Below the pieces are notes generated by a model. The model searched no databases and was not told where the DNA came from. It saw only the letters and a program-made list of their open reading frames with translations. The translations under genes were made by a program, and so were the position numbers. Shown one piece after another: positions 13,549 through 52,522 of a stretch of 64,000 nucleotides of DNA; the stretch's first letter is position 1, and each line of letters opens with the position of its first letter. Location of the stretch: positions 9,438-73,437 of the forward strand of contig DAHXLD010000010.1 of the NCBI GenBank assembly GCA_027371845.1. Direction: 5' to 3'. The stretch comes from Candidatus Saccharimonadota bacterium (lineage in GTDB: Bacteria > Patescibacteriota > Saccharimonadia > Saccharimonadales > UBA4665).

Positions 13549-13962
13549 ATGGAAGATGCAAACACCAATATTCCAAAACCAAAACATCCCAGCCGAATAC
13601 TTTTAGTTGAAGATGATGATGCTTTAGCTAATGTCTACGTTACTCGCCTAGAGGCTGAGGGTTTTGATGTTAGAAGGGTGGCCAATGGAGAAGATGCTCT
13701 TGCTGATGCCATGAGCTATAAACCAGATCTGGTCCTTTTGGATGTTATGATGCCAAAAGTTAGTGGCTTTGATGTTTTAGATATACTTAGAAATACTCCA
13801 GAGACCGCTAATCTTAAAATAATAATGCTAACTGCCTTAAGTCAAGAAAGTGACAAAGAGAGAGCCGAAAGTCTTGGAGTTGACGACTATTTAGTAAAGT
13901 CGCAGGTGGTAATTGCTGATGTCGTTGAAAGAATAAGACATCACCTGCATTTAGAAAATTAA
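13549..13962 (+). CDS. single-domain response regulator (receiver only)
   Basis: 137 aa. LLVEDDD acidic pocket, DLVLLDVMMP phospho-Asp, IIMLTAL, DDYLVKS Lys. No output domain. Close paralogue of the receiver at 40164-41276. Confidence 0.85.
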   Translation: MEDANTNIPKPKHPSRILLVEDDDALANVYVTRLEAEGFDVRRVANGEDALADAMSYKPDLVLLDVMMPKVSGFDVLDILRNTPETANLKIIMLTALSQESDKERAESLGVDDYLVKSQVVIADVVERIRHHLHLEN

Positions 13963-13963
13963 G

Positions 13964-14236
13964 CTATTCGACGCTGACTTCTGTTCTTCGAACACTTTTT
14001 CCGCTAAATAAACGGATTTTTCTAGAACTGAACTTAACTATTCCATCTTTTGTGGCGTGTATTGTAAAGTTTCGACTTATCATGGTTCCTGTTCCAGGCC
14101 TTTTGGTCATTCCAACCTGCCTAACTATAACTTGTCCAGTTTTAACTTTTTGATTACCAAAAATTTTAACTCCTAGTCTTTGACCCGGTGAATCGTGAAC
14201 ATTTTTAGCTGTACCGCCTGCTTTTACGTGTGACAT
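13964..14236 (-). CDS. rpmA: 50S ribosomal protein L27
   Basis: 90 aa. MSHVKAGGTAKNVHDSPGQRLGVKIFG..IVRQVG matches the L27 N-terminal signature. No Firmicutes-type propeptide. Confidence 0.93.
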   Translation of the reverse strand: MSHVKAGGTAKNVHDSPGQRLGVKIFGNQKVKTGQVIVRQVGMTKRPGTGTMISRNFTIHATKDGIVKFSSRKIRLFSGKSVRRTEVSVE

Positions 14237-17907: not shown

Positions 17908-18576
17908 ATGAAACATAAGCACGATGGATCAATAAATTTTCTTTTTTTGTTTATAGTGGCTCTATGTTTATTCTTCCTATCTCTTATATTTGGAATATGG
18001 TCTTATGCAACAGCTCAGAAATATAAAAACAACGTAGATCAAATAGTGAACGCTGATGTTAGTACCGCTAAAACACAACAACAAATCTCAGACAATAAAG
18101 CCTTTGCCATTGCCGAACAAAACCCATTTACGACTTACTATGGTCCTCAAGCGTATGGAAGTCTAGTAGTAAGTTACCCAAAAAATTGGAGCTCTTACGT
18201 TAACACCACTACCAATAATAATTATCCGGTTGATGGTTACTTCTATCCAAGTACCTTACCGTCGGTTCACGATTCTGATCCTGTTGATTTTGCTTTAAGA
18301 ATTAGGGTCTTAAATATGACCTACAGTCAGGAGTTACAGCAGTATGCTGGGCTTCAAAATGGAGGTAATGTTCAAATAAGCGCCTATTCGCTTCCCAAGA
18401 TGCCATCAATCGTTGGAGTAAAGGTAGTCGGAAGTTTACTAAACAATAATCAGAAGCAGGGAACTGTAATAATCCTACCACTTAGAAGTAATACATTAGA
18501 ATTTTGGACAGAAGGCAATCAGTATCAAAGTACTTTTATTAACAATATTTTACCCTCTATAAGTTTTTCTCCTTAA
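17908..18576 (+). CDS. hypothetical membrane-anchored extracytoplasmic protein
   Basis: 222 aa. Single N-terminal TM (INFLFLFIVALCLFFLSLIFGIW) followed by a soluble domain of about 170 aa. No motif recognised. Confidence 0.6.
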   Translation: MKHKHDGSINFLFLFIVALCLFFLSLIFGIWSYATAQKYKNNVDQIVNADVSTAKTQQQISDNKAFAIAEQNPFTTYYGPQAYGSLVVSYPKNWSSYVNTTTNNNYPVDGYFYPSTLPSVHDSDPVDFALRIRVLNMTYSQELQQYAGLQNGGNVQISAYSLPKMPSIVGVKVVGSLLNNNQKQGTVIILPLRSNTLEFWTEGNQYQSTFINNILPSISFSP

Positions 18577-18627
18577 CGATTTATTAATTAATAAGTGGTA
18601 TAATTATCTCTAGAAAAGAGGGTAGAG

Positions 18628-19344
18628 ATGTCTCTTGATGAGGTAAAGGTTTTAAATCAAGAAATTGCTTCGATAATAAATTTAGCCGAACAGTTGAAGT
18701 TGCCATTTCTGCAAATCCTTAGAGAAGTAGAAGCAAGTAAAATTGATAATCAAAGGGATCTTAATAACATTGAAGTATCAGCTGAACATGCCTTAAATCT
18801 TTTAGACAATTATTTATTAAGTATTAAATTAAGCAACAAAGAAGTTGAGTTTAGTAGCGAGTCAGTCTCAATATCTCATATTCTTTATGAGAGTTCTAAA
18901 TTGCTAGAAAATCTTGCCAGGCAATATGGCGTAATAATCGAACTTGATATCAACGGAAAATTTGGACCAGTTGAAGCTAATGGATTTGGATTGCAGTCAG
19001 CATTATTTAGCGCCGGTTCTTCTCTTATAGAGGCCGTATCGGCTAGCCCGGATCAATCTAAGAAGCGTTTGTATTTAGCGAGTCACAAGAGTCGTTACGG
19101 TATTGTAATAGGTGCCTATACGGACAATATGATCATTACTAATAAGATTATAAAACAGGGCCGATCTCTTGCGGGACTTTCTAGCCAACCTTTCCCGTCT
19201 ATTATTCCATCAGCTGGAGCTGGCATACTAGTTGCGGATCGAATAATGAAAGCAATGAACTTAGACTTAAAGAGTTCCAGGCATAATAAGTTATATGGAA
19301 TAGGTGCAGTACTCCATTCAAACGAACAGTTACAATTAGTTTAA
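18628..19344 (+). CDS. cytoplasmic histidine-kinase-like protein with degenerate catalytic motifs (pseudokinase candidate)
   Basis: 238 aa. HK-like order of a helical DHp-like N terminus plus a GHKL-like C terminus (G2-like SAGAGILVADRIMKAMNLDLKSS..YG). The H-box position reads IINLAEQLKLPF (no SHELRTP His), the N-box reads LFSAGSSLIEAV (no Asn) and G1 reads AYTDNMII. SD AGAGGG upstream. Confidence 0.45.
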   Translation: MSLDEVKVLNQEIASIINLAEQLKLPFLQILREVEASKIDNQRDLNNIEVSAEHALNLLDNYLLSIKLSNKEVEFSSESVSISHILYESSKLLENLARQYGVIIELDINGKFGPVEANGFGLQSALFSAGSSLIEAVSASPDQSKKRLYLASHKSRYGIVIGAYTDNMIITNKIIKQGRSLAGLSSQPFPSIIPSAGAGILVADRIMKAMNLDLKSSRHNKLYGIGAVLHSNEQLQLV

Positions 19345-19724
19345 TGAAACGCATAAACATATTGTTAGTTGAACCTGATAATGTTCTAGCAAGAAGCTAT
19401 CAAAGAGCTTTAGAGAAGTTGGGACAAAAGGTTATTTGCGCGAATAGTGCTCAAAATGCGATTAATCAACTTGATAAATTTAAGATAAGTTTAATAATCC
19501 TAGAGATTCAACTAGTTGATCATTCTGGGATAGAGTTTTTATACGAACTTAGATCTTATCCAGAGTGGGATAAAATAAGAGTTATCATCCTAAGTTCAAT
19601 ACCAGAACACGAATTTAAGAATAATATAAATATCTTAAAAAATGACCTAAAAGTTGATTATTATCTTTACAAGAATGGTACTAAATTAAATAAATTAATA
19701 AAAATTATCGAAAATATAGAATGA
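19344..19724 (+). CDS. atypical receiver domain protein (phospho-acceptor Asp replaced by Glu)
   Basis: 126 aa. Receiver fold landmarks are present (ILLVEPD, RVIILSS, VDYYLYK Lys), but the beta3 site reads SLIILEIQLVDHSG where DLIILDxxxP is expected. Its start overlaps the upstream stop (TAATG). Confidence 0.65.
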   Translation: MKRINILLVEPDNVLARSYQRALEKLGQKVICANSAQNAINQLDKFKISLIILEIQLVDHSGIEFLYELRSYPEWDKIRVIILSSIPEHEFKNNINILKNDLKVDYYLYKNGTKLNKLIKIIENIE

Positions 19725-20407
19725 ATATCAAGACCACAGATGCGATTCTTATAAACAGAATTAATTATTCCGAAAGTGATCGAATCTTAAATCTTATTAC
19801 TTTAGAGTTTGGAAAAATTGCTGTTATAGCCAAAGGTTCTCGGAAGATAAAATCAAAATTAGCTGGCAGTATTGAACTTTTCACTTTATTAAAAATAGGT
19901 TTTATAGAAGGCAAAGGCGATATGGGTACTTTAGTGTCATCAAGAATAATAGAGAATTTTGAAGAAATAAGTAAAGATTTAGATAAATCTCAATTAGCAT
20001 TTCATGTTTTAAAGCTAACTAATTTAAACACTCACGATAATGCCGATCAAAATTATTTTAATCTCCTTTTAAAATTCTTTAAGCTGTTAAATAGCGAATC
20101 AGTCGACCTGTTGACTTTAAAAAATTGGTATTATGCTCAATCTTTATTAATTAATGGTAGCATTCCTAATTTAATAAAATCTGATGACGGGGTCAATTTA
20201 ATCGAGTCTAAAAAGTATGATTTTAATTATTTAAAGATGTGTTTTTCGGGAGGAGATAAGTATTCCAAAGATCATATTAAATATTTAAGGCTATTATTTA
20301 GTGATACCTATAATTTAAGAGCATTTAAAATTAATATTAAACAAAACTTAAATAAAGATAGTTTTGAAATCTTAGAGACTATGTTTAAAAGTCATCTTTC
20401 GCTATAA
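19721..20407 (+). CDS. recO: DNA repair protein RecO
   Basis: 228 aa. OB-fold N terminus (TDAILINRINYSESDRILNLITLEFGKIAVIAKGSRKIKSK). ATGA overlap with the upstream gene. Confidence 0.8.
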   Translation: MNIKTTDAILINRINYSESDRILNLITLEFGKIAVIAKGSRKIKSKLAGSIELFTLLKIGFIEGKGDMGTLVSSRIIENFEEISKDLDKSQLAFHVLKLTNLNTHDNADQNYFNLLLKFFKLLNSESVDLLTLKNWYYAQSLLINGSIPNLIKSDDGVNLIESKKYDFNYLKMCFSGGDKYSKDHIKYLRLLFSDTYNLRAFKINIKQNLNKDSFEILETMFKSHLSL

Positions 20408-20408
20408 T
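20403..20408 (+). promoter_or_regulatory. -10 hexamer TATAAT 7 nt upstream of glyQS ATG (leaderless-type geometry)
   Basis: TATAAT at 20403-20408 overlaps the recO stop. ATG is at 20416. Confidence 0.45.
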
Positions 20409-20415
20409 TTAGGAA

Positions 20416-21768
20416 ATGGTAAGTTTAGAAAATATTGTAGCGTTATTAAAAAGACGAGGATTCATTTATCCAGGATCGGAGATATACGGGGGCCTATCTG
20501 GTACTTGGGATTATGGTCCCTTAGGCGTAATCCTTAAAAGAAATGTTGAAAATTTATGGTGGAATTTTTTTGTTGAAAAAAGAACGGATATGTATGGGAT
20601 TGATTCGGCAATTTTAATGAATCCAAAAGTTTGGCAGGCAAGTGGTCACGTCGATACGTTTAGTGATCCGCTAATTGAGGATCTTAAAACCAAAAAAAGA
20701 TATCGTTTAGATCACATTTTGGAAGATAACGGTATAGATCCAGTCGGTATGTCAATCGAGGAGATGCAGGACAAAATTACTAAAAAGAATATTTTGAGTC
20801 CAGAGGGCAACAAACTAGGGAATGCCGCCAAGTTTAATTTAATGTTTAAGACTCATATTGGATCAGTCGAAGAAGATAAATCGATTGTTTATCTCAGACC
20901 CGAGACGGCTCAAGGAATGTTTGTCAATTTTAAAAATATTATAGATTCGTTTTATCCTGATTTGCCTTTTGGTATCGCTCAAGTTGGCAAGAACTTTCGA
21001 AATGAAATTTCTCCTAGAGATTTTATTTTTAGGAGTCGAGAACTTGAAATTATGGAGCTTGAATATTTTATCGATCCAGCCGATTGGGAAAAAGAATTTG
21101 AAAAGTGGTTAAAAATTCAAATTGAATGGTATACAAAAGTTCTAAAATTAGACAAGAACAAAGTTATTCAAAAAGAAATTGAGGCTGCCGATAGAGCTCA
21201 TTATAGTAAGAGAACCATTGATTTTGAATATGTTTTTCCGTTCGGAACAAAAGAAATTGGAGGCTTTGCTTACCGGGGAGACTTTGATTTAAATAATCAT
21301 CAGAAAACTTCTGGCAAATCGTTAGAGTATAGAGTCAAGGGCTCAGATAAAGTCTTTATTCCGCACGTTTTAGAGCCAACTTTTGGATTAGATAGAAACG
21401 TTTTAGCTTTAATATTCGAGGTTTATTCCGAGGATGAAGTTAATGGAGAGAAAAGAATATTTTTAAAACTAGATAAAAATATGGCTCCATATAGAGTTGC
21501 GATTAGTCCTTTATTAAAAAATAAGGTTGAATTAGTTAAAAAAGCCAAAGAGGTTTTTAATATGGTAAAATCCTCAATTTATAATGTTGTTTGGGACGAT
21601 AATGGGAATATTGGCAAAAGATACAGAAGGCAAGACGAGATAGGGACTCCGTTTTGTGTAACAATTGATTTTGAAACTCTAGAAAATAATACAATAACCT
21701 TAAGGGATAGAGATACCACCAATCAAGTCAGAATAAAAATAAGCGAACTTATTTCAAAGATTTCTTAA
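20416..21768 (+). CDS. glyQS: glycine-tRNA ligase (dimeric class II type)
   Basis: 450 aa. LKRRGFIYPGSEIYGGLSGTWDYGPLG, FRNEISPR, and a C-terminal anticodon-binding domain. Confidence 0.93.
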   Translation: MVSLENIVALLKRRGFIYPGSEIYGGLSGTWDYGPLGVILKRNVENLWWNFFVEKRTDMYGIDSAILMNPKVWQASGHVDTFSDPLIEDLKTKKRYRLDHILEDNGIDPVGMSIEEMQDKITKKNILSPEGNKLGNAAKFNLMFKTHIGSVEEDKSIVYLRPETAQGMFVNFKNIIDSFYPDLPFGIAQVGKNFRNEISPRDFIFRSRELEIMELEYFIDPADWEKEFEKWLKIQIEWYTKVLKLDKNKVIQKEIEAADRAHYSKRTIDFEYVFPFGTKEIGGFAYRGDFDLNNHQKTSGKSLEYRVKGSDKVFIPHVLEPTFGLDRNVLALIFEVYSEDEVNGEKRIFLKLDKNMAPYRVAISPLLKNKVELVKKAKEVFNMVKSSIYNVVWDDNGNIGKRYRRQDEIGTPFCVTIDFETLENNTITLRDRDTTNQVRIKISELISKIS

Positions 21769-40163: not shown

Positions 40164-41276
40164 TTAAAGAGTAATATTAGTTGGGTCGATATTATCGCTA
40201 GAATTTAAAGAACTAGCTTGAGGAGAGTCATCTGGGTTTACTATCGAAGTCCTGGGGGTATTATTTGTGTACGGTATAACGTTCTCTGGGGGGCTTACCG
40301 GCACTGAACTATCTGATTCTGAATCAGTGCCTTGAATCGGTATTTGAATTGAAGGAGATTGAACTTCGGGAGCCTGCTCAATAGGAGGATTATTTAAATA
40401 TGGTTGATTAGATCCTTGATCTTGCTGTTCATTATTGTCGGTAACTTCATTAAGCGAAGAATCTTCACTGCCAAGATTGCCATAAAATTCATTAATTTTG
40501 TTATTAATATTGGTTGTTTCGGTCGATTCGTTTAAAGCTTCGGGGTCTTGGTCAATGGGTTGTTGGCTAGGGTTGGTAGGTTCAGTTGGGGTTTCTTCTT
40601 GTTGAACTGGTTCGGGCACTAACGGCATTGATGTGTCTTGAGTTTGAGTGTCTAAGGCTTCTTGTCCTAAATTGTCGGCAGTTTGTAATAACTGATCATT
40701 TGATAAACCGGTTGAATTATTAGTAGTATTTTCTTCGTTTAAAGCTTCGGGGTCTTGGTCAATGGGTTGTTGGCTAGGGTTGGTAGGTTCAGTTGGGGTT
40801 TCTTCTTGTTGAACTGGTTCGGGCACTAACGGCATTGATGTGTCTTGAGTTTGAGTGTCTAAGGCTTCCTGTCCTTGTTGATTCTCTGAAGTATTATTAC
40901 TATTTTCGGTAGGGTTTAGTAATTCTTTAGCTACCTTGACTATATCTTCTAAGGTAACCTGAGACTTAACTAAATACTTATCGGCACCAAGTTTATTAGC
41001 TCGATCTTGATCCTCGCTTTGTCCTAAGGCTGTCAACATAATAACCTTAGCGTTCTTTAAGCCGTCGGTATTGCGAATAATGTCTAACATTTCAAAGCCA
41101 CTAATCTTAGGCATCATGACATCAGAAATAATTAGATCAGGTAATTGATCTTTAGCTAGAACAAGAGCCTCTTCGCCGTCCCCGGAAGATATTACTATGT
41201 AACCTTCAGCTTGAAGTCTCGCTTCATATATTTCTCTAAGATTGTTGTCGTCTTCCGCTAAAAGGATTTTCGCCAC
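40164..41276 (-). CDS. response regulator receiver fused to a long Pro/Gln/Glu/Thr-rich low-complexity tail
   Basis: 370 aa, GTG start. Canonical receiver (LLAEDD, DLIISDVMMP, IMLTAL, DKYLVKS) for about 120 aa. The following 250 aa or so are predicted disordered and contain a duplicated 47-aa block. Confidence 0.85.
   Translation of the reverse strand: MAKILLAEDDNNLREIYEARLQAEGYIVISSGDGEEALVLAKDQLPDLIISDVMMPKISGFEMLDIIRNTDGLKNAKVIMLTALGQSEDQDRANKLGADKYLVKSQVTLEDIVKVAKELLNPTENSNNTSENQQGQEALDTQTQDTSMPLVPEPVQQEETPTEPTNPSQQPIDQDPEALNEENTTNNSTGLSNDQLLQTADNLGQEALDTQTQDTSMPLVPEPVQQEETPTEPTNPSQQPIDQDPEALNESTETTNINNKINEFYGNLGSEDSSLNEVTDNNEQQDQGSNQPYLNNPPIEQAPEVQSPSIQIPIQGTDSESDSSVPVSPPENVIPYTNNTPRTSIVNPDDSPQASSLNSSDNIDPTNITL
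40527..40667. repeat. 141-bp direct repeat copy A inside the receiver-tail gene
   Basis: Identical to 40734-40874 except for one position (40663 vs 40870). The offset is 207 bp (69 codons, in frame). Confidence 0.9.
40734..40874. repeat. 141-bp direct repeat copy B inside the receiver-tail gene
   Basis: See copy A. Encodes GQEALDTQTQDTSMPLVPEPVQQEETPTEPTNPSQQPIDQDPEALNE. Confidence 0.9.
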
Positions 41277-41328: not shown

Positions 41329-42666
41329 TTAAGTCAAAGGGTTTTTGGTTAAATCAGTTATAGTATCTGGATTTACATCTGATGTCATGCTCTGAGCTTG
41401 TTGTTGTGTTATTCTTGGTAAGTTTATATAAAATGTACTACCCTTATCTACTCGACTTTCAACCCATATCCTACCGTTATAGAGCTCGATTATCTTTTTA
41501 CATATGAATAGTCCTAAACCAGTCCCCCCAACGGTTCTAGTGGCTGAATTATCTACTCTATAGAATTTTTGAAAGAGATGAGGGATGTCTTCGGCCGGAA
41601 TACCTACCCCAGAATCTTTAACATAGAATTGGACAACATTAGTATCGGCGGTAAGCCCTATCGTAATGGAACCTTCAGAAGTAAATTTTACGGAGTTATC
41701 AAAGAGGTTGGTAATCACCTCTCTTAATCGATCTGGGTCGGCATACACATAATAAAAAGGCATTATGTTTTTCTCTTTTGTTAAGTTAACTTTCGCTAGT
41801 TGATCTGTGCCAACAATAAATTCCATTTTTAATCCTTTTTTTTCGGCTGCAAACTTGAGCTCTTCGGCTAATTGTTTGAGGAAAGTACCTATTTCTATTA
41901 CTTTTGGGTGATTGGTTAATCTTCCGTCCTCTGCTTTAGCGCTGGTTAAAAGATCTTGAAATAACTGTCCTAGGTGCTGTGTGGCCATATGAGCCTTTTC
42001 AAGATAGTCTCGAACTTTATCGTCAATTGAGGATACTTTAGAATTTAGAGCTAAAGCTAGATAACCCTCAATAGCTGCTACCGGGGTTCTCATTTCGTGA
42101 GATGCGGTACTTATAAAATCTACAAGTCTTTCTTCTTCCATTCTTTCTTCTGTAACATTTCTAATCAAAACGACTGCTGATTCAGAGCTTTTGTTTAAAT
42201 CTGCTAATGAGATACTTAAGCTAACATAAATTGTTGAATTTGTTTTAGTTATAAGTGAAGCATTATTGTCTTTGATGTTTTGTTTCAATTTAAATATTTG
42301 TACAAAGGGGTTACTATTAGCTAAGTATTCTTCTCCCTTGTTGTCTACTACTTTAACTACCATCTTAATATCTATTCCAATTGCATCTTTAGCTTCCCAG
42401 CCAGTTATTTTTTCAGCTGCTGGATTGAACAAATTTATGACTCCGTTTGAATCAATTAAGATAAGACCTTCGTCGATTGAATTAAATATGAAACTTAGTT
42501 TATCGGTTTGATCTTTTAAAGATAAGTTTGGTTTAGTTTTATTCTTTGTCTTAGTCTTTTTAATAGAAGTAAGTCGGAATATTAAAAAGATAATTATTCC
42601 AACAGCGATTATTCCAGCACCAATAAAAGCGTATATATAATAATGCATATGTTTACTTAAATACAT
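41329..42666 (-). CDS. sensor histidine kinase (TM, PAS, HisKA, HATPase_c)
   Basis: 445 aa. One N-terminal TM, a PAS-like segment (FNSIDEGLILID..ITGW), H-box STASHEMRTPVAAIEGYL, N-box NLFDNSVKFT, G1 DSGVGIP, G2 GGTGLGL. Confidence 0.9.
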   Translation of the reverse strand: MYLSKHMHYYIYAFIGAGIIAVGIIIFLIFRLTSIKKTKTKNKTKPNLSLKDQTDKLSFIFNSIDEGLILIDSNGVINLFNPAAEKITGWEAKDAIGIDIKMVVKVVDNKGEEYLANSNPFVQIFKLKQNIKDNNASLITKTNSTIYVSLSISLADLNKSSESAVVLIRNVTEERMEEERLVDFISTASHEMRTPVAAIEGYLALALNSKVSSIDDKVRDYLEKAHMATQHLGQLFQDLLTSAKAEDGRLTNHPKVIEIGTFLKQLAEELKFAAEKKGLKMEFIVGTDQLAKVNLTKEKNIMPFYYVYADPDRLREVITNLFDNSVKFTSEGSITIGLTADTNVVQFYVKDSGVGIPAEDIPHLFQKFYRVDNSATRTVGGTGLGLFICKKIIELYNGRIWVESRVDKGSTFYINLPRITQQQAQSMTSDVNPDTITDLTKNPLT

Positions 42667-49181: not shown

Positions 49182-50555
49182 TTAAGGAATCATAGAATAT
49201 ATCGCCGCTATTCCCGACACTGTCATTAGAAGAACTAATATCCAACCAAACGAAGCTGATATCTTGCCATTTTTCCACTCTCCCATTATTTTATGGTTTC
49301 GGGCCATTATTAGAATTAGAACTAATATTATTGGAGCCACAATTCCATTCAATACGGCTGAATAGATTAAAGCTTTAATTGGGTTAAGACCTATAAAGTT
49401 AATCCCAAGGCCAATTAACATCGAAATTATGATAACTCCATAGAAAGAATAAGCCTGTCGAAGCTTTTTGCTTAAGCCTTGTTTTTTCCCTAGGGTTTCA
49501 CTTATGGCATAGGCACTAGATCCAGCTAAAACAGGTATCGCTAAAAGACCAACACCTAAAATCCCAATGGCAAAAAGCCAAAAAGATAAGTTTCCGGCAA
49601 AAGGCCTTAGGGCTTCGGCGGCTTGAGAGGCTGTGTTAATGTCGGTAATGCCGTGAGTAAACAAGACGCTTGCACAAGCGGCAATTATAAAAAACATAAC
49701 GACATTGCTTAAGAACATTCCAGACCAAACATCTATTCTCATGCTTCTAATGTCTTGTTTACTTGTTTCCTTTCGTTGAGCTATAGTAGTTTGTCCAGCG
49801 GCAATCTCATCTTCTACTTCTTGAGAGGTTTGCCAGAAAAAAAGATACGGAGTGATTGTTGTTCCCAAAACGGCACAAATAAGAAGGATACTATTTTTAG
49901 AAATTGTAAAAGTTGGTATTATTGAATGTTTTAGAATTGTGTGCCAATCTGGTTTAGCTAAGATCGCTGATAAAATATAAGTAACTAAAATAAGGGCCAA
50001 CCATTTTAAATATTTGGCGTATCTTGCGTAGGGTGTAAATATTTGAACCACAATAATAAATAAAGTAAAAAGGACTACTAATAGTCCAAAGTTAAGGCTT
50101 GGCCTTAATAGTTGAAGGGCGTTAGCCATAGCTCCAATATCTGCCCCAATATTAAATGTATTGGCGGCAAATAAAAAGATGGTACTTAGGTATAATATTC
50201 TTTTTCCAAAATGGGCTCTAATGTTACTAGCTAATCCCTTCCCGGTTGCTAAACCTATTCTGGCACACATTTCTTGGATTACAGCCATTAGAGGAAAGGT
50301 AAAGCCAGCTAACCAAAGTAATTTAAAGCCATACTGGGCTCCTGCTTGAGAATATGTCGCTATTCCGCTTGGATCGTCGTCAGACGCTCCAGTCGTTAAA
50401 CCAGGACCAAGAGTATACCAGTAGTCTTTAGCTTTTTGGATAGATAGATTTTTTGAATAAGGTATAGAGTTAGCAATTTTCTGACTAGAGTCTATTCCTT
50501 TTTGAAGTCCTCTCGCCGGAGCCTCAATGGTTCTTTCAATTATATTTTTTTTCAT
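49182..50555 (-). CDS. NRAMP-family divalent metal cation transporter
   Basis: 457 aa, about 11 TM helices. GPGLTTGASDDDPSGIATYSQAGAQYGFKLLW resembles the NRAMP/MntH-like N-terminal signature. Confidence 0.8.
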   Translation of the reverse strand: MKKNIIERTIEAPARGLQKGIDSSQKIANSIPYSKNLSIQKAKDYWYTLGPGLTTGASDDDPSGIATYSQAGAQYGFKLLWLAGFTFPLMAVIQEMCARIGLATGKGLASNIRAHFGKRILYLSTIFLFAANTFNIGADIGAMANALQLLRPSLNFGLLVVLFTLFIIVVQIFTPYARYAKYLKWLALILVTYILSAILAKPDWHTILKHSIIPTFTISKNSILLICAVLGTTITPYLFFWQTSQEVEDEIAAGQTTIAQRKETSKQDIRSMRIDVWSGMFLSNVVMFFIIAACASVLFTHGITDINTASQAAEALRPFAGNLSFWLFAIGILGVGLLAIPVLAGSSAYAISETLGKKQGLSKKLRQAYSFYGVIIISMLIGLGINFIGLNPIKALIYSAVLNGIVAPIILVLILIMARNHKIMGEWKNGKISASFGWILVLLMTVSGIAAIYSMIP

Positions 50556-50562
50556 CTTAAGT

Positions 50563-50952
50563 TTAAAGTTTAATTTTATTTAAAAACTCGACAAGTTCCA
50601 TTGGGGTTAGCTCGGCTTTAATGATATAACCGTCAGCTTGACTTTCGATTTTTGTCTTAACATCCTCTCTTTGTTCAAGATTAGTTGTGATAATAACCTT
50701 AGCTCTTAAGTGTGGTGTTTTAGTTTTGTCTCTTAAAATATCTAGAAGCTCTATACCAGTTAGGTTGGGGATCATTAAATCTAATAATATTATGTCGTAG
50801 TAGTCGGTCTGAGCTTCTTTGAGAGCCTCTACCCCATCAGCAATTACCTTAACTTCATATCCAGATTTATTTAGGGCCCTAGTATAAAGTTCTCCAATGA
50901 AATGTTCATCTTCTATGACAAGTATTTTTCTGATTTCTTTATTTTCTTCCAT
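50563..50952 (-). CDS. single-domain response regulator (receiver only)
   Basis: 129 aa. ILVIEDE, DIILLDLMIP, VIITTNL, DGYIIKA. No output domain. Confidence 0.88.
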   Translation of the reverse strand: MEENKEIRKILVIEDEHFIGELYTRALNKSGYEVKVIADGVEALKEAQTDYYDIILLDLMIPNLTGIELLDILRDKTKTPHLRAKVIITTNLEQREDVKTKIESQADGYIIKAELTPMELVEFLNKIKL

Positions 50953-50980
50953 GATATAACTTTAACATTTTTTTAAAAAA

Positions 50981-52522
50981 TTAACGTCTATAATATGAAT
51001 GATTTTTAATCCAGCCGTGAGCGCTTCTGACTAGATCATCATTTGAAAGATTCTTTTGTTCTTGACTTAGCTTTTCGAATGGCAAAACACTAAAACCAAA
51101 AATGCTACCATCCCCCTCTTTACTGTGAACCCATATGTTACCTTGATGGGCGGTAATTATAGCTTTTGATAAATATAAGCCCAAACCAGTTCCCCCAACT
51201 TGGGCCCGATTATGGTGATCTCTATAAAACTTGGTAAACAGTTTAGATATTATGCTTTCTGGAATACCTCTTCCAAAGTCTTGAACGGTTGTTTCAACTA
51301 AGCCTTCACCATTTAAGGAGCTTTTAATTTTAATTACTTTGGAGTCGTTGCTGTATTTAATAGCGTTATCGATTAGATTTAAAACGACTTCTTGGATGCT
51401 TAATCTATCAACTCCAACCTCGGGAAGATCGGTTGCGATATCTCTTTCTAGGGCGATGTTTCTAACTTTTGCCCGTAAATCGATCGTATCAATAGCTTGA
51501 TTTAAAACTTCAGACCAGTTTTCTTTCTGGAGTTTAAGTTCCATTTGATCATTATCTACTCTAGCGACATTTAAGATATTATTAACAAATGCCGTTAATT
51601 GATCGCTTGAGGCTCTCATCTTATCTAAGAATGAATCCATTTCTGGATTTAACTTGCCCTTGAATTCTTGATTAAAGACTTCTACGTAACCCTTCAGAAG
51701 AGTTAGGGGAGTTCTAAGTTCGTGAACGGTCAAAGCCACAAAGCTAATGGATTGATCGTCTTGAGAGTATTGTTTGGTGTGATCAAATAAAGTTAATATC
51801 GTGCAGTAACCTTCAGGGTTGCCGACGTTATAATAGGCCGAAAGATCAAAGTATAGAGTTGGGTGTTGATCTCTAATATTAAGCTTTACCCTCTCCCATT
51901 GATTAGAGCTATTAGCAGTGTTCCCCTTAACTTCTTTAAGCCAATAATCAAAAGTATTATTTGTCGGGAAAGACATATCGAGAATCGTGTAAATATTTTT
52001 ATTTATTAAATCGTTAACTTCTATACCTAAATATTGAGCAGCTATTTTATTGGCAAATTTAATATTTTCATTGTTGTCTAGAACAAAGATCGGTAAAGGA
52101 ATATTGTTGGCCATAAAATCCCTAGATAGATCATATTTAGTTTTTTCAATTTCAGTAGCGTTTTTATTGGCAACTGATGCAATTTGATAAAGCTGGGAAA
52201 TAAGATTACTTACTAATTCTCTTCCAAGGGTTAGTTTATTGGTGTCGGGGGCTCCAATCGGTTGATTATAGCTCGGACTAATATGTAGAATCGCTTGACG
52301 AAGTTGTTTTAATGGAGAAGTTAGGCCATTACTTAGCATCAAGGTAGTTACTAAGCTTAAGAAAAAGGATAATAAACAAGCAATTATTAAGGTTTCCTTT
52401 AGGCCAATATTTAAATAATGGACGGTTAAATATATTAACCCTACTATAATTAGATTCTCAATAAGTAAGCTCACCAAGAGTCTTATCTTAAATTTATTTA
52501 AATATCTTTGGAAGTCATCCAT
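50981..52522 (-). CDS. sensor histidine kinase (2 TM, PAS-like, HisKA, HATPase_c)
   Basis: 513 aa. H-box LTVHELRTPLTLLKGY, N-box NLIDNAIKYS, G1 DFGRGIP, G2 GGTGLGL. Confidence 0.9.
   Translation of the reverse strand: MDDFQRYLNKFKIRLLVSLLIENLIIVGLIYLTVHYLNIGLKETLIIACLLSFFLSLVTTLMLSNGLTSPLKQLRQAILHISPSYNQPIGAPDTNKLTLGRELVSNLISQLYQIASVANKNATEIEKTKYDLSRDFMANNIPLPIFVLDNNENIKFANKIAAQYLGIEVNDLINKNIYTILDMSFPTNNTFDYWLKEVKGNTANSSNQWERVKLNIRDQHPTLYFDLSAYYNVGNPEGYCTILTLFDHTKQYSQDDQSISFVALTVHELRTPLTLLKGYVEVFNQEFKGKLNPEMDSFLDKMRASSDQLTAFVNNILNVARVDNDQMELKLQKENWSEVLNQAIDTIDLRAKVRNIALERDIATDLPEVGVDRLSIQEVVLNLIDNAIKYSNDSKVIKIKSSLNGEGLVETTVQDFGRGIPESIISKLFTKFYRDHHNRAQVGGTGLGLYLSKAIITAHQGNIWVHSKEGDGSIFGFSVLPFEKLSQEQKNLSNDDLVRSAHGWIKNHSYYRR

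Follow-up and report, generated by a model that had tools for sequence, protein, structure and literature searches.

A translationally linked pseudo-histidine kinase and pseudo-receiver pair encoded upstream of recO in Saccharimonadia

What can a histidine kinase (HK) and its receiver still do for a cell when neither has the residues needed to handle a phosphoryl group? The question is raised by a 64,000-nucleotide stretch of DNA from a Candidatus Saccharimonadota bacterium (GenBank assembly GCA_027371845.1, contig DAHXLD010000010.1, positions 9,438 to 73,437; hereafter the window), in which two small overlapping genes run directly into recO. We call their products pHK, for pseudo-histidine kinase, and pREC, for pseudo-receiver. 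The window has a low GC content (~34%), and its genes and their closest relatives all belong to Candidatus Saccharibacteria/Saccharimonadia, the Saccharibacteria being ultrasmall episymbiotic bacteria. The two proteins are very probably a cognate pseudo-kinase and pseudo-receiver, and the residues for autophosphorylation, Mg-ATP binding, phosphotransfer and HisKA-type phosphatase activity are all absent from them. We also think it probable, with less assurance, that the pair is a module derived from an HK and a response regulator (RR) and repurposed to work by protein-protein contact, independently of phosphorylation.

A kinase core and a receiver without phosphotransfer residues

The AlphaFold2 model of pHK, built on 36 orthologues (pLDDT 83.5, pTM 0.79), begins with a two-helix hairpin (residues 3-39 and 46-69) and continues with strands and helices in GHKL-type order, giving a DHp hairpin at about residues 3-69 and a CA domain at about residues 78-229. 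When this model was compared with the PDB, Foldseek returned only complete kinase cytoplasmic cores (probability 1.0, ~240 aligned columns), the best being HK853 (E=1.3e-9) and the others including CpxA, DivL, ZraS, GacS and RetS. Model and matches agree on the DHp hairpin and GHKL/Bergerat CA order of a HisKA-type kinase. At the level of sequence, neither pHK nor five divergent orthologues matched Pfam HisKA or HATPase_c at E<=1, no significant Pfam or NCBIfam match to pHK was found (the sole trace was PhoR at E=0.01), and a phmmer search of the PDB with pHK gave no match. The family profile did give a weak PDB match to DivL (4q20, E=0.015), in which V-A-E-Q-L-K-L-P-L of pHK (AEQLKLPL) lines up with V-S-Y-E-L-R-T-P-L of DivL (SYELRTPL). 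Because it has no hydrophobic segment and no domain beyond DHp and CA, pHK is a soluble, sensor-less core. Its identity as an anti-sigma-factor kinase of the SpoIIAB/RsbW type was considered and is ruled out by the DHp hairpin and by best matches that are full HK cores.

Motif positions in pHK were read after the window's two canonical PAS-kinases, 41329-42666 (-) and 50981-52522 (-), which match Pfam HATPase_c at E=2.5e-32 and 3.6e-26, had been added to the family alignment with MAFFT --add. The resulting register is the same as the DivL register; hhalign of the pHK family against one of the canonical kinases aligned only the second DHp helix (alpha2) and the first CA strand. At the H-box position pHK reads NLAEQLKLPFLQ, with Glu21 at the phospho-accepting site; L-K-x-P at +2, +3 and +5 (compare H-E-L-R-T-P) fixes this register. 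The phosphatase motif of HisKA kinases is H-E/D-x-x-T/N, and it too is missing from pHK: canonical kinases have Thr at H+4, where pHK has the nearly invariant Leu25. In the N-box helix, LQSALFSAGSSLIEAV, the two Asn of both canonical window kinases are matched by Ser128 and Ser132 (most relatives have Ala there) and the Lys by Glu135. The GxG of the G1 region, RYGIVIGAYTDNMII, falls in a 5-residue gap, and in the G2 region, SAGAGILVADRI, G197-A-G199 aligns to the start of the motif with Leu or Phe in place of the third Gly.

The second protein is recognisable as a receiver from its sequence. It belongs to Pfam PF00072 (Response_reg; E=9e-12, 45.6 bits against a cut-off of 30.2), has a CheY-like (beta/alpha)5 pattern and aligns to KdpE, CheY and RR468. 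Where the three canonical receivers of the window carry E-D-D, D, T and K, pREC carries E10-P11(-D12), E54, S84 and K110, and the alignment to KdpE agrees. Half of the Mg2+-binding acidic pair is therefore gone, E10 being kept and position DD2 being Pro11; Glu54, in the peptide LIILEIQLVDHSG, takes the place of the phospho-Asp, and the Pro at D+4 has been lost as well. The switch residues, which include those of Y-T coupling, are retained: among 119 pREC cluster representatives, S/T84 and K110 are present in 100% and Y107, the K-3 aromatic residue, in 98%, and E10, P11, E54, Q56, H60, G62 and K110 are invariant. pREC is a pseudo-receiver as defined in PMC12632262, that is, a protein found as a receiver that is without the phosphotransfer residues. 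Judged by their defining residues, pHK is no histidine kinase and pREC no receiver in an enzymatic sense.

Much of this had been anticipated in a preliminary description of the locus, whose open reading frames, quoted peptides and TAATG and ATGA overlaps are all present in the window. Its reading of the 18628-19344 product as kinase-like is borne out by structure prediction and Foldseek; the losses of the phospho-His, the N-box Asn and G1 that it listed are seen again in the alignments to the canonical window kinases and DivL; and its receiver with Glu for Asp and an EPD pocket is confirmed by the PF00072 match and by alignment to the three window receivers and KdpE.

Conservation, operon structure and transposon phenotypes

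These losses are not peculiar to one genome; they recur, with gene order unchanged, in several hundred orthologues, far beyond what chance would give. Searches with pHK gave 180 word-indexed matches and 534 representative clusters at E<=1e-3 (246 of them at <=1e-30), the listed relatives being all ~240 aa long, shorter fragments aside; pREC gave 243 matches at E<=1e-5, and a pHK relative is encoded by 193 GTDB species genomes. The H-site of 258 full-length database pHK proteins is Glu in 235, Asp in 9, Gln in 9, Arg in 1 and His in none. Orthologues from the fetched loci have mostly Glu and otherwise Asp (18), Asn (4), Ala (2), Gly (1) or Val (1) at this site, and none has a His at or beside it. 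No member of the pHK family has the N-box Asn ligands, and the glycines of G1 are deleted throughout. Neither a kinase His nor an acidic DD2 occurs in any of 132 unique pHK/pREC pairs, DD2 being Pro, Ser, Thr or Ala; at least 84 of them read E/P/E at H-site, DD2 and D-site, and ~20 read (D,N,G)/(S,T,P,A)/D.

The last of these combinations marks the deeper part of the family. Glu54 is found in all 119 representatives of the window's clade and Asp54 in ~20 deep-branching lineages. A deeper subfamily that we refer to as type B (23 species genomes) has the H-box L-S-[DNG]-D-L-A-L-P-L-L-Q-I and a CA domain likewise without Asn and GxG, and its receivers keep Asp54 next to a DD2 of Ser, Thr, Pro or Ala; in one widespread lineage (L222) Asp54 goes with Glu at the H-site. 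Natural variation at the former sites of phosphorylation (L199-L221 of type B, L222/L224, L095, L101, L114 and L139) covers D, N, G, A, V or Q at the H-site, D or E at the D-site and P, S, T or A at DD2. The states of the two sites are associated, Glu with Glu and Asp, Asn or Gly with Asp, but this follows clade structure and is therefore not independent evidence of coupling. The Asp-to-Glu change emphasised in the preliminary description thus holds for the largest clade and fails in deeper subfamilies, where Asp54 is kept though DD2 and the kinase His are still missing.

Selection was gauged against the nearest relative (L001, 82% identity), with pN and pS denoting differences at replacement and silent sites. 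The pN/pS values are 0.10/0.73 for pHK, 0.16/0.77 for pREC and 0.14/0.70 for recO, with replacement sites at 0.07 for glyS; silent sites are saturated (pS 0.73-0.77). The losses of the phospho-sites are ancient and kept under strong purifying selection, not the product of local decay. Some records titled Dormiibacterota, Verrucomicrobiia, Kerfeldbacteria or Binatia carry a Saccharimonadia-type locus, either the full block (L016, L020, L046) or only a pREC motif or pHK relative (L092, L203, L206), and a protein named for Polaromonas is found among the pHK relatives; contamination of bins or mislabelling of these public metagenome-assembled genomes is likely.

The arrangement of the genes is conserved too: in 80 syntenic loci the order xseA-xseB-(methyltransferase)-memb-pHK-pREC-recO-glyS is almost universal, memb being a membrane protein gene. 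The median gap between pHK and pREC is 2 nt (<=30 nt in 70 of 72 loci) and that between pREC and recO is -4 nt, with an overlap in 62 of 68 loci, so that the coupling to recO noted earlier is general; memb and pHK are separated by a median of 74 nt and never overlap. In the window the stop of pHK and the start of pREC meet in GTT TAATG AAA, and the corresponding pREC/recO junction is GAATGAAT. The identity of recO is secured by TIGR00613 (82.2 bits against a cut-off of 48.7, E=3.6e-23) and RecO_N (65.3 bits against 27, E=5e-18).

In DNA so rich in AT, a generic promoter and terminator scan did no better than on shuffled sequence (45 sites where 35 were expected; 1 terminator-like site where 3.3 were), and a comparative motif count across loci was used in its place. 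In 78 of 81 loci the hexamer TATA[AC]T is found 25-45 nt ahead of the start codon of pHK, preceded by TG in 30 of these, and in 65 of 81 there is a GAGGG-type motif within 25 nt of that start. Within 80 nt upstream of the other genes the hexamer is rare (memb 4/73, pREC 1/72, recO 1/69), and it recurs 10-20 nt before glyS in 50 of 57 loci. Since the -10 element precedes pHK and is almost absent before pREC and recO, we define a pHK-pREC-recO operon, and the motif counts point to a tricistronic transcript from its own promoter. The glyS gene is probably transcribed separately and leaderless; Rfam found no T-box before it, and Rfam and tRNA scans found no RNA elements at the locus (Table 1).

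Table 1. Positions of the genes, codons and putative signals of the locus, numbered in the window
Feature	Position	Strand	Remarks
memb	17908..18576	+	222-aa membrane protein; conserved neighbour upstream of pHK, module membership doubtful
Extended -10-like element TGGTATAAT	18596..18604 (hexamer 18599-18604)	+	in the memb-pHK spacer; putative promoter element
Shine-Dalgarno-like AAGAGGG	18616..18622	+	5 nt before the pHK ATG
pHK	18628..19344	+	soluble 238-aa pseudo-histidine kinase without sensor or transmembrane segment
Glu21 codon GAA	18688..18690	+	at the phospho-accepting His site in the MAFFT and DivL alignments
pREC	19344..19724	+	126-aa single-domain pseudo-receiver without output domain
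Glu10-Pro11-Asp12 (EPD) codons	19371..19379	+	acidic pair reads E-P; Pro at DD2, a direct metal ligand
Glu54 codon GAG	19503..19505	+	at the phospho-Asp site; aligns to KdpE Asp52 and the Asp of the three window receivers
recO	19721..20407	+	last of the three operon genes; its start shares the sequence ATGA with the stop of pREC
TATAAT	20403..20408	+	7 nt before the glyS ATG, overlapping the recO stop; downstream boundary of the operon
glyS	ATG at 20416	+	downstream of recO

Transposon insertion sequencing (Tn-seq) of Southlakia epibionticum speaks to the importance of the pair. According to Table S1 of Wang et al. 2023 (PMC10633639), this organism has a block of xseA, xseB and a SAM methyltransferase gene followed by SEML1_0245-0249. 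We list the calls in the order input DNA/T1/T2 (ES, essential; GD, growth defect; NE, non-essential): SEML1_0245 (hypothetical, ECOD Mog1p/PsbP-like; 663 bp), ES/ES/ES; SEML1_0246 (syntenic with pHK; 708 bp), GD/GD/ES; SEML1_0247 (response regulator, syntenic with pREC; 366 bp), NE/GD/ES; SEML1_0248 (RecO; 675 bp), NE/NE/GD; and SEML1_0249 (GlyRS; 1353 bp), GD/ES/ES. Insertions in SEML1_0246 fall from 32 in the input DNA to 1 at T2 and those in SEML1_0247 from 10 to 0; SEML1_0247 and SEML1_0248 each overlap the upstream gene by 4 nt. The canonical PAS-HK/RR pair SEML1_0318/0317 and the single-domain RR SEML1_0238 are almost entirely NE. Polar effects on glyS are an unlikely cause of the SEML1_0246 and SEML1_0247 defects, since recO stands between these genes and glyS and itself tolerates insertions. 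The text of PMC10633639 does not discuss these syntenic genes. Judged by synteny, then, growth depends more on the pair than on RecO or the canonical two-component systems.

The 15.4-23.1 kb region is a single co-directional array of an LPG-synthase-type membrane protein gene, xseA, xseB, memb, pHK, pREC, recO, glyS and a PIF1-like helicase gene. The model of memb, of moderate quality (pLDDT 76.6), is N-in, with an 8-residue basic N-terminus, a single transmembrane helix running into a long stalk helix, and a beta-rich extracytoplasmic domain. Foldseek matched this domain best to CyanoP (2lnj; E=3.9e-5, probability 1.0, target-normalised TM 0.50), and also to plant PsbP, M. tuberculosis LpqN and Apa, and Salmonella DcrB, giving the ectodomain a PsbP/Mog1p-like fold; Table S2 of PMC10633639 assigns SEML1_0245 to the same ECOD class (Mog1p/PsbP-like). 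The preliminary description had set this protein immediately upstream of the pair, and as a conserved neighbour it does stand there (74 of 80 loci). The spacer is always positive and holds the -10 element, however, which leaves memb outside the operon, and its membership of the module is doubtful because only ~8 of its residues are cytoplasmic and a promoter-like element separates it from pHK. That memb serves pHK as the sensor half of a split kinase was also considered and is unlikely, given the same ~8 residues and the separate transcription signal between the genes.

Several further observations concern neighbouring genes. Most relatives, and S. epibionticum (SEML1_0244), have a gene for a 162-aa membrane-anchored SAM-methyltransferase between xseB and memb (for example L024 3686-4174 and L002 3274-3762), which is missing from the window, L001 and L222. 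A canonical single-domain receiver gene, 13549-13962 (+), stands directly before an L27 gene on the opposite strand, 13964-14236 (-); the arrangement recurs in S. epibionticum (SEML1_0238/0239), and the synteny of the class therefore reaches well beyond the operon. At 40164-41276 (-) a canonical receiver is fused to an acidic, Pro/Gln-rich low-complexity tail of ~250 aa that holds an exact 47-aa duplication (GQEALDTQTQDTSMPLVPEPVQQEETPTEPTNPSQQPIDQDPEALNE), and it adjoins the PAS-HisKA-HATPase kinase gene 41329-42666 (-). A second cluster, 49182-52522 (-), consists of a PAS-histidine kinase (50981-52522), a single-domain receiver (50563-50952) and an Nramp transporter (49182-50555); the kinase and receiver genes are similar in size to the PAS-HK/RR pair SEML1_0318/0317, which is non-essential in S. 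epibionticum by Tn-seq.

How the pair might act, and what else it might be

How might such a pair work? We suspect that pHK most likely dimerises through DHp in a four-helix bundle of the HK type. With Glu in place of His it would be unable to autophosphorylate, and with neither N-box Asn nor G1 glycines it is probably unable to bind Mg-ATP in the canonical manner; pREC, with Pro at DD2 and Glu for Asp, would be equally incapable of Asp phosphochemistry. Asp-to-Glu substitutions activate several response regulators, and Glu54, together with Ser/Thr84 and Lys110, plausibly holds pREC in an 'on-like' conformation. Overlapping or nearly abutting frames behind a dedicated promoter would supply pHK and pREC at a fixed ratio, together with RecO, and the two proteins may bind each other through the ancestral DHp/receiver interface; the H-box flank of pHK (L23-K24-L25-P26-x-x-Q29-I30) and the alpha1 residues L15/A16/Y19/L23 of pREC are nearly invariant. 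Output, whether signal or scaffold, would then be by protein-protein contacts in the manner of DivL and DivK. A candidate contact surface is the most conserved one of pREC, its beta3-alpha3 loop and alpha3 helix, HSGIEFLYELRSYPEW (H60-S-G-I-E-F-L-Y-E-L-R-S-Y-P-E-W75). All subfamilies share one invariant C-terminal motif in pHK, K/Q-Q-L-x-L/F-V. The pocket of pHK that formerly held ATP is lined by conserved polar residues (H153, R156, R179, R186, D204, R218 and H219), which would leave room for a ligand as input.

A number of points weigh against a purely phosphate-free contact module. The same pocket residues could mean that pHK still binds a ligand, and adenine may still be contacted through Asp166, the G1 Asp position, which is kept in 48 of 72 orthologues. 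Receivers that keep Asp54 might be phosphorylated by another donor if Asp12 replaces DD2. Covariation between the proteins (mutual information with average product correction, 72 pHK/pREC pairs) placed its top-scoring residue pairs at scattered positions, with no excess at a DHp/alpha1 interface; with a likely interface that hardly varies and an effective number of sequences (Neff) of ~61, this result carries no information either way. The orthology of the Tn-seq genes is inferred from synteny, gene size and 4-nt overlaps. Finally, Table S2 of PMC10633639 records weak Pfam matches for SEML1_0246 (HATPase_c, i-E 6.9e-6; HisKA, 3.4e-4), against 1e-26 to 1e-32 for the canonical window kinases; SEML1_0246 is divergent, and possibly less degenerate than the pHK of the window.

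We consider a bolder form of the contact module unlikely. In it, Saccharibacteria alone would possess this switch, which would be essential to them and operate without phosphate; the HK-RR complex would be locked in mimicry of the phosphotransfer state, with Glu21 opposite Glu54, Glu10, Asp12 and His60 and possibly a metal ion bridging them. Like DivL-DivK in Caulobacter, it would govern a central part of the life of these budding episymbionts, such as the cell cycle, polarity or the envelope, and DNA repair would not be its concern.

Alternatively, the pair may modulate canonical two-component systems, with pHK heterodimerising with PAS-HKs through DHp in the style of RetS and GacS, or with pHK and pREC acting as decoys that titrate receivers and kinases. 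Candidate partners are at hand: canonical genes in the window code for two PAS-HKs and for three receivers, of which two consist of a single domain; RetS and GacS are themselves among the Foldseek matches of pHK, and pseudo-components have been proposed as binding competitors (PMC12632262). We nonetheless find this explanation improbable. The canonical SEML1_0318/0317 and SEML1_0238 are non-essential where the syntenic pseudo-pair is needed, and a mere modulator of dispensable systems should itself be dispensable; that each pHK gene is strictly coupled, one to one, to a pREC gene of its own also points to a self-contained pair.

The position of the genes suggests another role, in which pHK and pREC would be accessory or regulatory subunits that control or assist the recombination mediator activity of RecO, for example by tying its loading to the state of the cell. 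The conserved tricistronic operon, its single upstream -10 element and the overlap of pREC with recO in 62 of 68 loci speak for such a role, yet we hold it to be quite unlikely. The main role of the pair cannot run through RecO, because the recO orthologue is NE/NE/GD while the two upstream genes become essential, and neither protein has a nucleic-acid-binding or RecO/RecR-like feature. Position may also be historical, as the adjacency of recO and glyS is an old gene order: in Firmicutes it is era-recO-glyQS. The module tied to a recombination-repair gene in the preliminary description accordingly stands as a co-expression with recO. As S. epibionticum can do without its recO orthologue but not without the syntenic pair, a functional tie is unproven.

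Residual, non-canonical phosphochemistry or ligand sensing is in our judgement unlikely too. Here the CA-like domain would bind a nucleotide or small molecule, and the receivers, or at least those with Asp54, would take phosphate from a small-molecule donor or from another kinase, Asp12 serving for DD2. The former ATP pocket and lid are indeed rich in invariant polar residues, the E-x-D motif is conserved throughout, as are the switch residues (Ser/Thr, Lys and Tyr), and ~20 lineages retain Asp54; but every member is without the two Asn that would bind Mg-ATP and without the G1 glycines, no orthologue has a His at or next to the H-box site, and all 119 representatives of the window's clade have Glu as the acceptor.

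That the pair is a functionless, decaying relic carried along in a conserved operon, as the loss of every catalytic hallmark and the lack of a Pfam kinase match might suggest, is scarcely credible and already contradicted by the conservation data, given ~240- and 126-aa frames intact in hundreds of lineages, dozens of invariant residues that include the substituted sites, replacement sites at 0.10-0.16 beside saturated silent sites, and the fitness defects of the syntenic genes. Where the preliminary description left 'relic or repurposed' side by side, purifying selection and the syntenic Tn-seq defects favour the second and dispose of the first.

Relation to known systems

Pseudo-kinases and pseudo-receivers are each known, and how they are switched is an open problem (PMC12632262). 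The present case differs in that both members of one cognate pair are dead and yet have been kept across a class with ~1 Mb genomes and very few regulators. Literature searches found no published description of this pair in Saccharibacteria or Patescibacteria, nor of any cognate, translationally linked, class-conserved pair with both partners dead. The locus thereby flags an unrecognised and probably important regulator in Patescibacteria. A system of 238 + 126 aa with no sensor or output domain, genetically tractable in S. epibionticum, asks what the HK/RR scaffold does without phosphotransfer, and the natural variation at the former phospho-sites (E/E, D/D, N/D, E/D) is a ready-made mutational series.

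The closest match in fold is HK853-RR468, a canonical pair that agrees with pHK/pREC in fold, in the order of its domains, in having adjacent genes and in the scaffold of the H-box (x-E/Q-L-K-x-P-L in pHK, H-E-L-R-T-P-L in canonical pairs of this type), RR468 being among the best matches of pREC; in pHK/pREC, by contrast, all residues for autophosphorylation, phosphotransfer and phosphatase activity are replaced. Plants offer an analogy. The kinase-related domain of phytochromes is derived from an HK and is without the His, the PRR/TOC1 pseudo-response regulators have Glu for the phospho-Asp, and both work without His-Asp phosphotransfer. The two types of substitution are those of pHK and pREC and were reached by convergence, so the likeness is one of analogy only; the plant proteins, unlike ours, are eukaryotic and multi-domain, do not form a cognate pair and are not encoded in an operon.

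Among bacterial proteins, the RetS-GacS network (PMC8498467) and PsmA of Streptomyces (PMC12963549) are HK-like and act through protein contacts instead of, or besides, phosphotransfer. Unlike pHK, they are large sensor-bearing proteins, of membrane or hybrid type, and neither has a pseudo-receiver partner dedicated to it. The bacterial pseudo-receivers reviewed by Bourret et al. 2025 (PMC12632262), such as FrzS, the second domain of PleD, CmrT and the ChxR-type atypical regulators, resemble pREC, which matches PF00072 without DD2, Asp or the D+4 Pro. In that survey ~80% of pseudo-receivers have a non-acidic DD2, and 0.9% of sampled HisKA domains are without the His. Unlike these, pREC is a stand-alone protein with the gene for a cognate pseudo-kinase directly upstream, and it fully keeps T, K and the K-3 aromatic residue, which is true of only ~47% of pseudo-receivers.

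The closest working analogue is DivL-DivK of Caulobacter crescentus (PMC4211667; PDB 4q20). DivL is both the best sequence-profile match of pHK in the PDB and one of its top Foldseek matches, and like pHK it has HisKA-type DHp and CA domains with the phospho-His replaced; it serves as a binding platform for a single-domain receiver and not as a phosphodonor, as we suspect pHK does. DivL has Tyr at the His site, a membrane anchor and PAS sensor domains, and DivK is a truly phosphorylatable receiver that is encoded away from DivL, whereas pHK and pREC are both dead, pHK has Glu at the His site and no sensor domain, and the two are encoded by translationally linked genes.

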